64,000 nt of DNA from an uncultured Ectothiorhodospiraceae bacterium. Lineage in GTDB: Bacteria; Pseudomonadota; Gammaproteobacteria; UBA9214. Location of the stretch: contig CAMYIO010000013.1 in NCBI GenBank assembly GCA_947258515.1, forward strand, positions 760 through 64,759. The letters run 5' to 3'. The notes beneath the pieces were generated by a model. It made no database searches. It was not told the DNA's origin and saw only the letters and a list, made by a program, of their open reading frames with translations. Positions 7,999 through 61,066 of the stretch are shown here, in pieces (position 1 is the first letter of the stretch; every line of letters starts with the position of its first letter). A program made the translations under genes and the position numbers.

Positions 7999-8068
7999 GG
8001 TTAGTTTCCCTGATTAATCATCCGCAGGAGCGACTTGCATCATATTCCTGCGCCAAATAATAAAACTG

Positions 8069-8136
8069 GTAGGAGCGGATCGCATCCGCGATTATCCGCC
8101 AGGAAAAAGACATTCGCGGATGCGATCCGCTCCTAC
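8069..8136. repeat. REP-like palindromic element copy 1 (23-nt arms GTAGGAGCGGATCGCATCCGCGA); bidirectional terminator hairpin downstream of rnhA
   Basis: Perfect inverted arms with a 22-nt loop, followed by a T-rich tract on the minus strand. Confidence 0.8.
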
Positions 8137-8148
8137 AGTTTTTGATTA

Positions 8149-21631: not shown

Positions 21632-22009
21632 ATGCATTTTAGCCAGGACTCTTTTGCAATCAACAGTATCCGCGCCTACGGCGACGGCGAAATCACGATT
21701 AACGATAAGACCATCGTACAGAGCGTGGTGATTACAGCGGACAGTATCCTGTTGTGGGAACCGCGCAGCATCGATGAACTGACTGCTGCGCATTTAGACC
21801 GGCTGGGTGAGCTGGACCCGGAAATCGTCATTATCGGGACCGGCAGGCAACTGGTCTTCCCGGCACAGGCATTAACGGCCGGTTTGCAGGTCCGCGGCAT
21901 TGGTGTGGAGATCATGGCACATGACGCCGCCTGCCGAACCTTCAATATCCTGCTGGCGGAAGACCGGCGCGTGGTGGCAGCGCTGATGATGAACAAGACG
22001 ACCCTGTAG
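21632..22009 (+). CDS. Mth938-like (DUF498) domain protein
   Basis: About 125 aa starting MHFSQDSFAINSIRAYGDGEITIN. The stop TAG lies inside the REP-like element. Confidence 0.6.
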   Translation: MHFSQDSFAINSIRAYGDGEITINDKTIVQSVVITADSILLWEPRSIDELTAAHLDRLGELDPEIVIIGTGRQLVFPAQALTAGLQVRGIGVEIMAHDAACRTFNILLAEDRRVVAALMMNKTTL

Positions 22010-22070
22010 GAGCGGATCGCATCCGCGAAGATTTTTTGAATCCCTGTTCGCGGATGCGATCCGCTCCTAC
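22006..22070. repeat. REP-like palindromic element copy 3; bidirectional terminator between convergent Mth938-like gene and rpoS
   Basis: Perfect 23-nt arms identical to copy 1, with a different 19-nt loop. Confidence 0.8.
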
Positions 22071-22078
22071 AGCCATTA

Positions 22079-23056
22079 TTATTTCAATAGCGCATCCATT
22101 GAAAAACCGTCCTGTTCCAGAATACGTTTGAGCTTTTTCAGGGCATCCATCTGGATCTGGCGCACACGTTCGCGGGTCACGCCGATTTCCTGGCCCACTT
22201 CTTCCAGGGTTGATACCGAGGGCCCATGCAGGCCAAAGCGGCGCTCCACCACCTCGCGCTGCTTGTCGCTGAGTTTCGACAGGCACTCTTCGAGGTTGGA
22301 ATGCACACCCTCTTCCTGCAAGGTATCGGTCGGGTCACGTGCGTTGCTGTCGGGTATGGTATCCAGCAATGTCTTGCCGGAATCACTCATCACGCTGCTA
22401 TCAGTTGAGGAGACACGTTCGTTCAAGCCCAGCATGCGCTCTACATCCTCAATCGGTTTGTTCAGCAGCTCGGCGATTTCCTCGGATGTGGGTTCATGAT
22501 CAAGCTCCTGCGCCAGGCTGCGTGCCGCCCGCAGGTAGACATTGATTTCCTTGACGACATGAATCGGTAAACGGATGGTACGCGTCTGGTTCATGATGGC
22601 GCGCTCGATGGTCTGACGTATCCACCAGGTACCGTAGGTCGAGAAACGGAAACCGCGTTCCGGGTCGAATTTTTCAACGGCCCGGATCAGCCCGAGATTT
22701 CCCTCCTCGATCAAGTCAAGAAACGCCAGGCCACGATTCATGTAACGCCGCGCTATTTTCACGACCAGGCGCAGGTTGCTTTCGATCATGCGCTTGCGGG
22801 CGCTCTCGTCACCCTGTTGCGCAAGCCGCGAGAATTTCACTTCCTCCTCTGCCGTCAGCAGGGGTGATGCACCGATTTCACTCAGGTAGAGGCGGGTCGG
22901 ATCATGATCGGAGGCAGCGGTCGCTACCTTGTACTTGCGGGGCTGTGGCGTTGCATGACCAGACCGCTCCCTGTCCGGTGCCTGCGGCGACTTCACAGGC
23001 TGACCCTTCACGGTGCTCTTGCTGTCGTCGGAGTCCTTGCGTTTTGCCACTGGCAT
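22079..23056 (-). CDS. rpoS: RNA polymerase sigma factor RpoS (sigma-38)
   Basis: Near-identity to the RpoS core ([56 protein letters not shown]). Downstream of nlpD. Start uncertain (Met at 23113/23080/23056). Confidence 0.9.
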
Positions 23057-23125: not shown

Positions 23126-23974
23126 TTACTGCTTCGGCAGGTACCTCATCGGGTCGGTCGGTTTGCCATTCTTGCGAATTTCAAAGTACAACTCGTTCCG
23201 ATTGGTGCCACTGCTGCCCATCTTGGCAATCATCTGTCCTGCCACGACGTGCTCGCCTTCGTTCACCAGCAGCTTGTTGTTATGCCCGTAGGCGCTGAGC
23301 AAATTTTCGTTATGTTTCACGATAATAAGCCTGCCGTAGCCGACAAGTCCACTCCCGGCATAGACCACCTTGCCATTGGCGGCGGCCTTTACCGGCTGAT
23401 CGGCATGCCCGCCGATATCTATGCCCTGCTTGCCGGGACCCGATGTCTGGAAGCGGGTCAACAGCCGGCCCCGGGTCGGCCATACCCATGTACCGTCATA
23501 CGCAGGTACCCTCGCTGTCTGATTTGCTGCGCTGTTCGACGTGCTGACCGTGACCGGCGTCGCCGCAGGGACCGGCTTCGGGGCCGGCGCTGCTGCAGGC
23601 GCCGGGGACGCCTTTACGGCAGGCCGGGGCTGCATCGCAGCCGGCTTTGCCTGTGACTGCCGGGGCACCGGCTTTACATGCAGCCGCTGGCCCTTATAGA
23701 TCGTGTAAGGTGAACGGATACCATTCATGCTCGCGAGTTCACGATAATTCAGCCCGAGATGCCAGGCAATGGAGTACAGGGTATCGCCGCCCTGCACAAC
23801 GTAATACCCGGACTGCTTGCTGCTTGTGGCGCTTGATGACGACCTTGCTGTTGTCTTCGCCCCCGAGGACTGTTGATTGTTTCGCGAATCAATCGGTGCA
23901 TTGACATGGGACGCACAGCCGCACAGCAGGGCGACCAGCAGGGCGGGAACAATTGACCGGTAAGCAGGCATCAT
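23126..23974 (-). CDS. nlpD: lipoprotein NlpD (LysM + M23 peptidase domain)
   Basis: Lipobox LLCGC, LysM (YVVQGGDTLYSIA), and a degenerate M23 domain. pcm-nlpD-rpoS synteny. Confidence 0.9.
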   Translation of the reverse strand: MMPAYRSIVPALLVALLCGCASHVNAPIDSRNNQQSSGAKTTARSSSSATSSKQSGYYVVQGGDTLYSIAWHLGLNYRELASMNGIRSPYTIYKGQRLHVKPVPRQSQAKPAAMQPRPAVKASPAPAAAPAPKPVPAATPVTVSTSNSAANQTARVPAYDGTWVWPTRGRLLTRFQTSGPGKQGIDIGGHADQPVKAAANGKVVYAGSGLVGYGRLIIVKHNENLLSAYGHNNKLLVNEGEHVVAGQMIAKMGSSGTNRNELYFEIRKNGKPTDPMRYLPKQ

Positions 23975-26829: not shown

Positions 26830-27873
26830 CTACCCCGCTGGCGTTGTCGCCTGCATCAGCTCACGCAACACACTGGTCGCGTAGGCACCGGGCGGCAGGC
26901 TGAATTCCAGCGACAGCTCAGCCCGGCCGGTCATCTGCCAGCCCAGGTCCTGCACCATGAGTCGCAGCGCGCGCCGGTCCTGTTTCAGCCCGGCGGCTTC
27001 CAGGCCGGCACACCAGTCCGCGTACCCGGCTAGCACGGCATGTTCCAGTTGATGACAGCTGCCTTGCACGGGGGTTTCGCCGCGACCGTGCAGCGGTCCG
27101 GTGGGATGCACGTCCTTGCTGTAGACGCGCGCCATCAGCTCCTCATCACTCGTCTCGGCAATAAAAAAACTGTGGCTGCCACTGAGCTGCATGGCGTCAC
27201 CAGCAATCGGCAAATTCCAGGTGGCGTCATCCACCCGATGAGACAGCAGCTGGTTAAACAGATAGGAACGTGCGGCCGACAGTGCCAGGCTGCGACTGGT
27301 TCTTGACATGCGCCGCCGCGGATTGGCAAACAGCCGCTGCGCGGCATGGAGATTGCCGGCATCACGACCAAAGCGTTGCTCACCAAAATAATTGGGCACG
27401 CCTTCAGCGCCTATCAGGGCAAGCCTTTTTTCCAGGGCTGTCTCATCAGCAGCAATTTCACGCACCGTTATGCTGAAGCGATTGCCACGCAATGCACCGC
27501 GCCGCAGTTTCCGTGAATGACGGGCATGTCGCAGCACGGTCAGGGTCTCCGAGTTGAGGGCCTCCCAGTGCGGGTCTTCGCGCCCCGACAGCTGTACCGA
27601 GAACCACTGCTCGGTCACCGCGCGCCGGTCCTTGAGACCGGCATAGCTGACCTGTCGTGGATGGACACCGGCGAATCGCGCCAGTTGCCCGGCGACCCAC
27701 GGCGTATTTTCATTGCGCTTGCGTATCCATAGCCAGACATGTTCACCCTCGCCGTCCGGTTCCAGCAAGGGCATCTCGGTGACGCAGAAGTCTTCCGCCC
27801 GCAGGCGCAGCCGACCGGTTGCGGCCGGCTTGCCGTGGGCGTACGCCAGTAACTGGATGGCCTGGTCGAGCAC
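26830..27873 (-). CDS. truD: tRNA pseudouridine(13) synthase TruD
   Basis: Collinear with E. coli TruD (VSYAGLKDRRAVT, NYFGEQRFG). Confidence 0.92.
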   Translation of the reverse strand: MLDQAIQLLAYAHGKPAATGRLRLRAEDFCVTEMPLLEPDGEGEHVWLWIRKRNENTPWVAGQLARFAGVHPRQVSYAGLKDRRAVTEQWFSVQLSGREDPHWEALNSETLTVLRHARHSRKLRRGALRGNRFSITVREIAADETALEKRLALIGAEGVPNYFGEQRFGRDAGNLHAAQRLFANPRRRMSRTSRSLALSAARSYLFNQLLSHRVDDATWNLPIAGDAMQLSGSHSFFIAETSDEELMARVYSKDVHPTGPLHGRGETPVQGSCHQLEHAVLAGYADWCAGLEAAGLKQDRRALRLMVQDLGWQMTGRAELSLEFSLPPGAYATSVLRELMQATTPAG

Positions 27874-27894: not shown

Positions 27895-28368
27895 TTAACG
27901 GGACTCCAGCAACACCACGGCAAGAGCCGCGATGCCTTCGCCCCTGCCGGTAAATCCGAGGTGCTCGGTGGTGGTTGCCTTGACGTTGACACGTGTAAGC
28001 TTGATCTGCAGGTCCGCGCTGATGTTTTCACACATGGCATTAATATAGGGCGACAGTTTCGGCGCCTGCGCGACGACCGTGATGTCGGCATTCTCTACCC
28101 TGAAATGATGGACCCGCAGCTGTTCATGGGTCTCGCGTAACAGGATACGGCTATCGATATTTTCATAGGCCGCGTCATGCGGCGGAAAATGCCGGCCGAT
28201 ATCACCGAGGGCAGCGGCACCGAGCAGTGCGTCGCACAGTGCATGCAGCACCACATCACCATCCGAGTGTGCCTCAAGGCTGCGATCACAGGGTATCGGC
28301 ACGCCGCCCAGAACCAGGGTGCCGCCGTCCTGAAAGGCATGCACATCCACGCCCTGTCCGATTCTCAT
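27895..28368 (-). CDS. ispF: 2-C-methyl-D-erythritol 2,4-cyclodiphosphate synthase
   Basis: MRIGQGVDVHAF...HSDGDV motif. Confidence 0.95.
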   Translation of the reverse strand: MRIGQGVDVHAFQDGGTLVLGGVPIPCDRSLEAHSDGDVVLHALCDALLGAAALGDIGRHFPPHDAAYENIDSRILLRETHEQLRVHHFRVENADITVVAQAPKLSPYINAMCENISADLQIKLTRVNVKATTTEHLGFTGRGEGIAALAVVLLESR

Positions 28369-29075
28369 GATGATTGCCTCGATTGCAGGTAGAACGCTGC
28401 CAGTGGCAGGTCAGAGGGCAAGGTAATCTTTATATTATCACGCGCGCCCTGCACCATACGTGGACGGTAACCGGCAAGCTCCATTGCATTCGCCTCGTCG
28501 GTTACCGGGTGGCCGTTGTCAACGGCCTGCTGCAGGGCGGCGCGCAAGGCGCCGATGCGAAACATTTGCGGCGTATAGGCATGCCACAGACCCTCGCGAT
28601 CGACCGTGTCCGAGATATTCAATTCGTCATCCACGCGTTTCATGGTATCAGCTACCGGCACACCCAGCAGGCCACCCTCGCCACTGCCTTGCAGTGTGTT
28701 CATCAGGTGCTCGATATCTTCCGGGCGCACGCAGGGACGGGCAGCATCATGCACCAGTACCCAGTCATCATCTCCGGCGCGGGCGGCGAGGTGCTTGAGT
28801 CCATTCAGGACCGAGTCGCAACGCTCTGCACCACCGTTGACCGTTTCCAGTGCCTGCTGCGTATAGCGCTGCTGTATCCCCGTCCAGCGCTGGTCCGCTG
28901 GCGAAAGCACCAGGATAACGCCTGCGAGCCGTTCACAGGACAGCAGTGTATCCAGGGTGTGCTCCACTACGGTCCTGTCGCCCAGTGTCAGGTACTGCTT
29001 GGGGATATCCGAACCCATGCGCGTACCCGCACCGGCGGCGGGAACGATGGCCCAGAATCTGGCTTCAGTCTGCAT
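28365..29075 (-). CDS. ispD: 2-C-methyl-D-erythritol 4-phosphate cytidylyltransferase
   Basis: AIVPAAGAGTRMG P-loop-like motif. Overlaps the ispF start. Confidence 0.95.
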   Translation of the reverse strand: MQTEARFWAIVPAAGAGTRMGSDIPKQYLTLGDRTVVEHTLDTLLSCERLAGVILVLSPADQRWTGIQQRYTQQALETVNGGAERCDSVLNGLKHLAARAGDDDWVLVHDAARPCVRPEDIEHLMNTLQGSGEGGLLGVPVADTMKRVDDELNISDTVDREGLWHAYTPQMFRIGALRAALQQAVDNGHPVTDEANAMELAGYRPRMVQGARDNIKITLPSDLPLAAFYLQSRQSS

Positions 29076-29332
29076 AGTCGATCAAACACATCATCTGGAT
29101 AGCTTGCAGTGCTTCGATATGAACAAGATAAAATACTTTTGGCCACGGAATCCACGGAAGAACACGGAAAAAACTATTAAGGCTTTTTTCTTTCTTGTTC
29201 ATCCGTGGATTCCGTGGCCAAAAGTATTTTATCTTGTTCATATCAAAGCACTGCAAGCTATCCAGATGATGTGTTTGATCGACTATGCAGACTGAAGCCA
29301 GATTCTGGGCCATCGTTCCCGCCGCCGGTGCG
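29028..29332. repeat. 305-bp near-perfect palindrome (about 126-nt arms, 1 mismatch). It contains the ispD start plus leader on the left arm, an inverted copy on the right arm, and an imperfect CCACGGAA-element centre.
   Basis: The reverse complement of 29202-29332 equals 29028-29158 except C29106 vs T. The first 16 ispD codons recur on the + strand from ~29285. Confidence 0.85.
29141..29219. repeat. CCACGGAA palindromic element (copy inside the large palindrome centre)
   Basis: GGCCACGGAATCCACGGAAGAACACGGAA...TCCGTGGATTCCGTGGCC. Related to 60936-61017. Confidence 0.7.
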
Positions 29333-29579
29333 TCTCGCCCTCTTTAACCATGCCCAGGTCCTCGCGGGCATGTTCCTCGATGGCATCAAAGCCCTGCTGC
29401 AGGTCCTGCACCTCGGCCTCCAGTGCCGCATTGCGTTCGCGCAGTTCGATATTTTCCTGGCGTTGCAACTCGACCTCGCGGTGCAACTCCCAGACATCCT
29501 GCAGGCTGCTCTCCCCGAACCACAGCTTGTACTGCAAATAGAGCAGTAATATCAGCAGCAGTAGGACCAGCTTTTTCAT
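29283..29579 (-). CDS. ftsB: cell division protein FtsB; last ~15 codons are encoded by the palindrome arm
   Basis: N-terminal TM + coiled coil (LLLILLLYLQYKLWFG...). The C-terminus ...GETH-RRRERWPRIWLQSA derives from the antisense ispD 5' region. Confidence 0.85.
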   Translation of the reverse strand: MKKLVLLLLILLLYLQYKLWFGESSLQDVWELHREVELQRQENIELRERNAALEAEVQDLQQGFDAIEEHAREDLGMVKEGETHRRRERWPRIWLQSA

Positions 29580-29632
29580 GCCAGAACGGTGTACCTGAAC
29601 GCACCTGCAGGCGGCAAACTCCCGGCTGGCAC

Positions 29633-30940
<1,308 letters not shown>

Positions 30941-30975: not shown

Positions 30976-31815
30976 CTATTTCATGAGCTCGTTTTCCGGT
31001 AGCGGCTGAGCCTTGATCAGCGCATCAATCTCTTTCAATGTCTTCAGCAGCGTCTGCAGCTGCCCCAGCGGCCAGGCGTTCGGCCCATCGCTGAGTGCCA
31101 CGGACGGGTCCGGGTGTGTTTCCATAAACACACCGGCGACGCCGGCGGCGACCGCGGCACGCGCCAGTACCGGGACGAACTCGCGCTGGCCACCGGAACT
31201 GCTTCCCTGCCCGCCCGGCAATTGCACCGAGTGCGTGGCATCGAACACAACCGGCACACCGGTGTTACGCATCACGGCCAGTGAACGCATATCCGAGACC
31301 AGGTTGTTATAGCCGAATGACGCGCCCCGTTCGCAGGCCATGATCTGTTCATTGCCGGTCGCCAGCGCCTTGTCGGTGACGTTTTTCATGTCCCACGGCG
31401 ACAGGAACTGGCCCTTTTTGATATTCACCGGCTTGCCCTGGCGCGCGACGCTCTGGATAAAATTGGTTTGTCGGCACAGGAAGGCTGGCGTTTGCAGGAC
31501 ATCGACAACCACGGCCACTTCAGCCAACGGGGTATCTTCATGCACATCGGTAAGCACCGGCACATGCAGCTGCTTCTTCACCTTCTCGAGGATGCGCAAA
31601 CCCTCTTCGAGACCCGGTCCGCGAAAGCTGGTGTGCGATGAACGGTTGGCCTTGTCAAACGATGACTTGTAGATAAACGGGATGTCGAGTGCTGCGGTTA
31701 TCTCTTGCAATTGCCCGGCGGTATCGATGGCAAGCTGTTCACTCTCTATTACACAGGGACCGGCTATCAGAAACAGGGGGTACTCGATACCAACCTGGAA
31801 ATCGCATAGCTTCAT
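30976..31815 (-). CDS. kdsA: 3-deoxy-8-phosphooctulonate synthase
   Basis: Collinear with E. coli KdsA. Confidence 0.95.
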
Positions 31816-55765: not shown

Positions 55766-56020
55766 GTGTATTACTCCAATGTTCAGGGTTAGGCTTCCAT
55801 GTACCCCAAAACAACAACCCGGTTGCCTGCGTGGTAATGACCTGCAGTCAACCAGGCACCCTGCTGCGTGTGCCGGTACATGTGTGAATTTTGCCAAGCG
55901 CAAATATTTGAAGTGCACTTAACAAGCCCGCCTTTATACCATACACTCCCTGCTCCGACAATCTGGCGGACGTCGCCACGGCTTGTACAGCTGCGCCCTC
56001 CTTGAGAATCAGGACCTTAG

Positions 56021-60935: not shown

Positions 60936-61017
60936 AGCCACGGAACCCACTAAAGGACACGGAAGAATAAAAGCATTACTAAAAATATTTCCGTGTTCTT
61001 CCGTGGATTTCGTGGCC
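60936..61017. repeat. CCACGGAA palindromic element, standalone copy in the EamA/dapC divergent intergenic region
   Basis: AGCCACGGAACCCAC...ACACGGAAGAA ... TTCCGTGTTCTTCCGTGGATTTCGTGGCC. An imperfect palindrome related to 29141-29219. Confidence 0.7.
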
Positions 61018-61066
61018 ATTTAATAAACTATCGGCAGTGACCAATCTAGAGTCAGCAACATAACGA

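Follow-up and report, generated by a model that had tools for sequence, protein, structure and literature searches.

How a near-perfect palindrome of 305 bp came to lie between ftsB and ispD in an uncultured Ectothiorhodospiraceae bacterium, and whether it was made in a living cell or during sequencing and assembly, is the question raised by the locus described here. The stretch of DNA that was analysed (the window) is 64,000 nucleotides long. The reading that we favour, with a probability of about 0.6, is that a lineage-specific, hairpin-seeded template-switch (fold-back) mutation occurred in vivo, and that the resulting allele is most likely young, either deleterious or tolerated, and not a functional device.

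On the minus strand, the genes run in the order kdsA (30976-31815), eno (29633-30928), ftsB (29283-29579), ispD (28365-29075), ispF (27895-28368) and truD (26830-27873). The Pfam labels of the orthologues in L001, an ENA metagenome contig of 131.7 kb (ERZ25039508 contig_12107), are consistent with these assignments. An exact look-up of the IspD protein matched two contigs, L001 and the short Logan contig L002 (SRR28060657). Another relative that is referred to repeatedly below, L083, comes from Ga0265306. The features on which the argument turns are listed here by their positions in the window.

28365-29075, minus strand: ispD, intact, 236 aa; L001 and L002 encode the same protein
29029-29141, minus strand: native donor segment, made up of ispD codons 1-16 (to 29075), their leader of 65 nt and the last base of the hairpin element; identical to L001
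29141-29219: pre-existing hairpin repeat of about 79 nt with three CACGGAA copies in its arms; the second junction (J2) falls somewhere in the perfect 25-nt arm that faces ftsB; the same element is at the same site in nine relatives
29219-29331: inverted copy, 113 nt, of the ispD leader and codons 1-16; carries the lone arm mismatch at 29245 and replaces 45 nt of L001 (4805-4849)
29332-29333: first junction (J1), where native ftsB meets the inverted copy; it can be placed at either of two positions 1 nt apart (C in gene sense), equivalent to 1 nt of microhomology
29283-29579, minus strand: derived ftsB ORF, 98 aa; native FtsB (DivIC family) extends over residues 1-83, and the inverted ispD copy encodes residues 84-98 (HRRRERWPRIWLQSA)
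29287-29349, plus strand: decoy mini-ORF of 20 codons (MQTEARFWAIVPAAGASRPL, then stop) beginning at the duplicated ispD start codon, antisense to ftsB; a by-product, read from the sequence and predicted only
60936-61018: second copy of the CACGGAA hairpin family, between divergent ORFs and without extended arms, found by repeat search

Geometry and folding of the palindrome

An inverted-repeat search of the 64-kb window returned arms at 29028-29173 and 29187-29332, each of 146 nt, 97% complementary and 13 nt apart. This is the one outstanding inverted repeat in the window, the runners-up being just 30-37 nt long. A base-by-base comparison of the two arms showed that symmetry is lost abruptly at 29027/29333, and the near-perfect palindrome that the initial annotation had reported at 29028-29332 was recovered by both approaches. 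Folded as RNA, the palindrome reaches -289.1 kcal/mol where shuffles average -98.6 (z = -37.6), with none of 100 shuffles as good; as DNA, it reaches -185.1 kcal/mol (z = -37.5 against shuffles). The single-stranded fold is one uninterrupted stem. The existence of the palindrome in the sequence, at a strength far above chance, is confirmed.

The palindrome is composed of the hairpin element of about 79 nt with 113 nt on either side of it, and the inner ~33 nt of each arm come from the inverted repeats of the element itself. When the outer segments were compared, 112 of the 113 bases at 29219-29331 matched the reverse complement of 29029-29141. A single arm mismatch had been described at 29106/29236. 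One mismatch is indeed all that separates 29028-29158 from 29202-29332, and its true place is nine positions off, at 29115 (C) and 29245 (A). The centre had also been described as not self-complementary, which did not hold: the 43 nt at 29159-29201 are the imperfect inner part of the hairpin and are paired at most positions. Similarly, the left arm had been said to carry the native ribosome-binding site of ispD and its first 16 codons. The arm does include codons 1-16 (29028-29075, minus strand) together with the 65 nt that precede them, but no canonical Shine-Dalgarno sequence was seen in these 65 nt; because of this, the segment should on its sequence be termed a 'translation-initiation region' and not a 'native RBS'.

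Other parts of the original description were borne out. The copy in the right arm does encode a new FtsB tail, the 98-aa ORF at 29283-29579 (minus strand) terminating in GETHRRRERWPRIWLQSA. Mirror ORFs at 28957..29295(+) and 29065..29313(-) are both present, as a trivial outcome of the symmetry of the palindrome. Searched against Rfam, the palindrome scored only below threshold, with miRNA-precursor models of plants and animals; these matches were dismissed as a generic response to long hairpins, and the palindrome is without involvement of a known RNA family. In the window as a whole, the sole Rfam match above the gathering score was a t44 RNA at 55788-55904 on the minus strand (60.8 bits).

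The ftsB-ispD junction and hairpin repeat in relatives

L001 and the window share 98.7-99.0% nucleotide identity over 10.7 kb and are collinear except for one block, in which 45 nt of L001 (4805-4849) correspond to 113 nt of the window (29331-29219). The BLAST blocks on either side, L001 1-4804 (window 34134-29332) and L001 4850-10711, flank the event collinearly. In L001, ftsB reads …GGCGAGAC followed directly by CTTCTACCAGGTGGTCGAGTAG, a 23-nt spacer, the hairpin element, the ispD leader and ispD. In the window, the same …GGCGAGAC is followed by GCACCGGCGG…, which corresponds to the 5' end of ispD and its leader in reverse complement, and then by the same hairpin element. The L001 ftsB encodes 89 aa with the C-terminus …GETFYQVVE, and the 45 nt lost in the window are its six final codons, the stop codon and the spacer. 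From the ftsB stop to the ispD start, the distance is about 174 bp in L001 and 207 bp in the window. Neither a second ftsB nor the lost 45 nt was found elsewhere in the 64-kb window.

A normal FtsB tail and the element, with no inverted ispD segment, were also found in L083 (IspD 97%), L003 (83%) and L085, L086, L088, L089, L091 and L093 (76-84%). The hairpin element therefore sits at the orthologous site in L001, L003, L083, L085, L086, L088, L089, L091 and L093. In its ancestral form it is about 80-87 nt long with 25-nt perfect arms in the ftsB-ispD spacer, and its arms in the relatives never exceed 40 nt (21-40 nt where a pair was called; no pair was called for L003 and L088). More distant relatives lack the element and keep the FtsB tail. 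A scan of genome contigs with IspD gave, among the matches listed, none above 83% identity. The target of the change is ancestral in L001, L083, L003 and the six others, and the source is identical between the window and L001. Since the 99%-identical L001, at least eight further relatives and 120 homologues keep the ancestral tail, the window state is read as derived, and the comparison supports the ispD arm as donor and the ftsB-side arm as copy. The initial annotation had proposed an inverted duplication of the ispD 5' end over the ftsB C-terminus, to be checked against the ftsB-ispD junction of related genomes. The ancestral junctions in L001 and eight relatives agree with it in showing the ispD side as donor, and L001 and at least eight others end ftsB normally with no inverted ispD copy. 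A different idea, in which the whole 305 bp is a mobile element that supplied the ispD N-terminus, was rejected: L092, L094 and L095, which have short spacers and no element, still encode the conserved motif [AV][IVL]VPAAG near the N-terminus of IspD.

Each arm of the element at 29141-29219 contains three CACGGAA heptamers (GGCCACGGAATCCACGGAAGAACACGGAAA). The resemblance of the centre to 60936-61017 that had been pointed out earlier was verified as a 31-nt match of 97% (to 60936-61018), and further CACGGAA hairpins lie at non-orthologous sites in L095 (2875-2953) and L137 (946-1030). Because of the second copy in the window and those in L095 and L137, the core element is placed, from its sequence, in a dispersed MITE- or REPIN-like repeat family of a clade of uncultured sediment gammaproteobacteria. 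It is short and non-coding, with inverted arms and several dispersed copies (two in the window, others in relatives). Like the intergenic hairpins of the REPIN and MITE type, it is about 80 nt long, has inverted arms and occurs in several copies at sites that vary among relatives. Unlike the REP-type palindrome with its GTAG head, it has three direct CACGGAA heptamers per arm, and a cognate RAYT or transposase gene was not identified. Typical elements of these classes also lack flanking gene sequence, unlike the palindrome in the window. Palindromes of the REP-like kind do occur in the window at 8055-8143 and 22004-22084, 14 kb apart, as inverted doublets with GTAG heads (GTAGGAGCGGATCGCATCCGCGA; REPIN-like), and these are not of the CACGGAA family.

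The dispersal of the hairpin, which recurs elsewhere in the window and at different sites in L095 and L137, would suit an origin of the palindrome by transposition, or by recombination between two hairpin copies to give a composite MITE-like insertion with captured ispD, in place of a template switch. Only one copy of the element is present at the locus, however, and it is in the ancestral position. There is no target-site duplication, none being obvious at the element in the ftsB-ispD junction sequences of the relatives either, and no transposase gene lies nearby. The copied DNA is the directly adjoining sequence, in exact mirror register with the arm of the element. We regard such an origin as close to negligible in probability.

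The element itself differs among the strains in ways that bear on its history. Its inner part is inverted between L001 (4850-4936) and L083 (431-517), with 43/48 identity in the flipped orientation against 37/52 in the direct one. Loop inversion is a recognised outcome of template switching (PMC8794818), and since the loop is flipped between L001 and L083, the ftsB-ispD hairpin may have been hit repeatedly by strand-switch or inversion events in the clade, as these sequences suggest. Relative to L001, the window carries two substitutions and an 8-nt deletion in the inner arm on the ftsB side, close to the centre, while about 150 nt on the native side show 0 differences. These inner-arm differences exceed the 1% background to L001 and would fit either elapsed time or selection against a perfect centre. 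When 29188-29202 was compared with 29119-29133 and 29227-29241, the substitutions GGAAGAACACG to GGATGAACAAG were both seen to raise the similarity to the arm motif ATGAACAAGATAAAA. The two substitutions may thus be a second, small templated change, with a probability of arising by chance of about 1 in 9. Separately, the Logan contig L002 starts exactly at the inner edge of the perfect arm, which a branching graph and a loop-flip polymorphism would fit equally.

Predicted effects on ftsB and ispD

Residues 1-83 of the window protein are normal FtsB. Homologues align to at most 85% of its length, and a tblastn search with ancestral FtsB matches residues 1-83 only. Compared with the ancestor, 6 residues were lost and 15 gained. 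In a search of 5.8 billion proteins, all 120 of the best FtsB homologues end in GE[TI]FYQ[VL][VIL][EK]. Where these 120 have GE[TI]FYQ.., the window protein has GETHRRRE, and so lacks the C-terminal strand of the FtsB family (PF04977). The RRRERW tail, in turn, was absent from all 120 best homologues in that search.

The importance of this strand is known from E. coli. The ancestral GETFYQVV aligns to GETFYRLV of E. coli FtsB (solved chains 8hhg, 6h9n, 5z2w and others), and the lost residues map onto F84 and Y85, at which aligned positions the window protein has H and R. The strand of E. coli FtsB that binds FtsQ is E82-V88, which includes F84 and Y85. Residues 64-87 are necessary and sufficient for FtsQ binding, the F84A and Y85A proteins are non-functional, and truncation at Y85 abolishes both complementation and FtsQ binding (PMC6134095). 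As GETHRRRE replaces residues that are essential in this precedent, the window FtsB, without the FYQVVE strand (equivalent to E. coli F84-V88, which docks on FtsQ), is predicted by analogy to be defective.

Upstream of ispD, the predicted effect is on expression. In any read-through transcript from ftsB, the ispD start codon and leader are predicted by folding to be fully paired within the 146-bp stem. A scan for sigma-70 promoters over 28800-29700 found none, including between the element and ispD, which is a weak negative, and a terminator scan found none at the hairpin element. As DNA, the palindrome is predicted to be a hairpin- or cruciform-prone site.

It could be argued that the palindrome exists in the organism and is fixed, being either functional or tolerated, with a tail that still works and a hairpin that acts in regulation as an RNase III site, an attenuator or a transcription barrier. 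The ftsB frame does stay open for 15 further codons before a stop, relatives of 76-99% identity retain the ancestral hairpin at the ftsB-ispD site, and the mismatch in the copy and the central changes, which weaken the symmetry, could reflect persistence and selection for stability. On the other hand, the palindrome is absent from every relative, including the 99%-identical strain; the tail that it removed, FYQ[VL][VIL], is present in 120/120 of the closest homologues and is experimentally essential in E. coli; and neither covariation nor recurrence points to selection. A functional allele of this kind is very improbable. More generally, it is improbable that a free-living sediment gammaproteobacterium truly carries the palindrome as a fixed allele.

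Switch points, origin and meaning

The in vivo template switch favoured at the outset is read from the two junctions. At J1, which in gene sense is GGCGAGA-C-GCACCGG, the C can be attributed to either partner. J2 lies at some point in the 25 nt (GCCACGGAATCCACGGAAGAACACG) through which the arms of the ancestral element pair without a mismatch. Immediately beyond this stretch, L001, L083, L003 and L091 have an A and the window a G, a change that matches the prediction of copying from the opposite arm. Collinearity with the original template is restored beyond the event, and the synteny, kdsA-eno-ftsB on one side and ispD-ispF-truD on the other, is normal; the event thus requires two switch points, as does the published template-switch model, in which nearby sequence is overwritten with a reverse-complement copy (PMC8794818). 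Because adjacent sequence was replaced by a reverse complement, with one switch point in an existing inverted repeat and a return to the template, the mechanism can be identified from the sequence, with good confidence, as a hairpin-seeded template switch, in which the resident repeat of about 79 nt would have seeded the 305-bp palindrome.

In the proposed sequence of steps, a nascent strand of plus polarity would be made from the ispD side (from ~29028 towards 29219) through the element. It would then snap back via the arms of the element and copy itself for 113 nt, perhaps to its own 5' end, before re-annealing inside ftsB via 1 nt of microhomology and omitting 45 nt. The GC skew of the plus strand is negative across the window (positions 1-64000), at -0.02 to -0.10. 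This suggests that the minus strand, on which kdsA-eno-ftsB-ispDF-truD lie, is the leading strand and that the strand that folded back was a lagging-strand fragment. As a speculation, the copy may end where the 5' end of that fragment lay.

The event belongs to a known class, that of template-switch and quasipalindrome mutations and local fold-back inverted duplications, and there is no evidence for a new kind of system. As in the Ripley model, the E. coli hotspots of the Lovett laboratory and the four-switch-point model of Löytynoja (PMC8794818, PMC7954356, PMC7202029), a segment is replaced by a nearby reverse complement, the change is nucleated at an imperfect inverted repeat, and a stem is created or extended. 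Loop inversion, likewise a feature of this class, is seen here in sister lineages, and one event accounts for all the differences in the cluster. The scale is another matter: in bacteria, the classical quasipalindrome mutations, like most template-switch mutations that have been inferred, range from a few bases to some tens, and no pattern in PMC8794818 exceeded 59 bp, whereas here 113 nt were copied to give a 146-nt stem. Unlike the usual template-switch mutations, this one also affects two essential genes. Fold-back inversions and palindrome-centred inverted duplications in yeast and cancer (PMC7467729, PMC10622511), and at a 246-bp palindrome in E. coli (PMC3315005), share the hairpin priming and a duplication centred on a short inverted repeat. 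They usually follow a double-strand break, however, and have arms of kilobases to chromosome scale or are dicentric, whereas the change in the window returns after 113 nt and is local and balanced. Its unusual features are its size, its seeding by a dispersed hairpin repeat and the fact that it covers the C-terminus of ftsB and the start of ispD.

The same structure could have been made outside the cell, by a polymerase switching at the hairpin (e.g. phi29 in multiple displacement amplification (MDA), or during library preparation) or by a mis-join in assembly, in which case the organism would in truth be L001-like. In most chimeras formed by MDA, a segment is inverted and the DNA in between is deleted, priming having taken place intramolecularly at 2-21 nt of complementarity (Lasken and Stockwell 2007, PMC1855051), and the event closely matches this form in its inverted segment, intervening deletion and intramolecular priming at short complementarity. 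The derived state is also a singleton, found in the window only. The 28-mer spanning J1, GAGGGCGAGACGCACCGGCGGCGGGAAC, had 0 matches in JGI metagenome contigs, no carrier of the new FtsB tail was found among 5.8 billion proteins, and exact-protein look-ups of the derived FtsB and of the 82-aa palindrome ORF matched no record. In addition, the allele is predicted to cripple the essential ftsB, and perhaps ispD too. A strongly deleterious allele is not expected at the consensus of a population or clone, and no sigma-70-like promoter was found that would give an ispD transcript free of the upstream arm; both points disfavour an origin in vivo. As no second assembly carries the derived state, the caution of the initial annotation that the palindrome might be an assembly fold-back artefact stands.

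Several observations point the other way. A typical fold-back or MDA chimera has a single junction and continues inverted, whereas here two precise junctions back to one locus are needed; instead of a single junction or a contig end, unique syntenic sequence extends for more than 28 kb on either side. With only 1 nt in common at J1, a mis-join in a de Bruijn (k-mer) graph is ruled out. Nor are the arms identical: one mismatch lies in the 113-nt copy, and the inner arm and centre of the element differ both from their partner and from L001 (the two substitutions and the 8-nt deletion). Such divergence has the appearance of change after the event and is unexpected for a fresh high-fidelity copy. 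Because the arms are imperfect and the native side is unchanged, elapsed evolutionary time is favoured over a fresh in vitro chimera. The assembly of the window is otherwise clean. At four of four single-base indels it is L001 that has the extra base. In the one case that was checked directly, an nlpD-like gene (LysM and M23 peptidase), the window has an intact 282-aa ORF (23126-23974) and L001 is the frameshifted sequence, the gene being split by a 1-nt insertion (L001 10104-10711); tilS, too, is an unbroken 447-aa ORF in the window. Size alone is no bar to reality, since engineered chromosomal palindromes of 246-460 bp are kept in recombination-proficient E. coli with little growth cost, even though palindromes this large are SbcCD targets in that organism (PMC3315005, PMC4245961, PMC6959608). 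An artefact is accordingly a possibility that we hold to be unlikely, and the in vivo template switch is the reading retained.

What the locus means depends on which of these readings is correct. If it is an artefact, it would be a warning that local inverted duplications seeded by natural hairpins can survive assembly and falsify gene calls, in this case by giving a 98-aa 'FtsB' a spurious tail. If the event is real, it would be an unusually large and clean natural instance of a bacterial hairpin-seeded template switch, one that leaves the donor, the target and the two junctions, as well as the ancestral allele, legible in the sequences. A resident intergenic hairpin would have turned neighbouring coding sequence into a long palindrome and rewritten the end of an essential gene in one step, and the loop flip in the sister strains would flag the ftsB-ispD hairpin as a recurrent strand-switch site in the clade. 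If, beyond this, the palindrome were a fixed allele, the organism would divide with an FtsB that lacks the canonical FtsQ-docking strand and would express the essential ispD from behind a 146-bp RNA/DNA hairpin. In that case, either the FtsB-FtsQ strand interaction would be dispensable or replaceable in this lineage, or long palindromes in essential operons would persist for long enough to gain substitutions.
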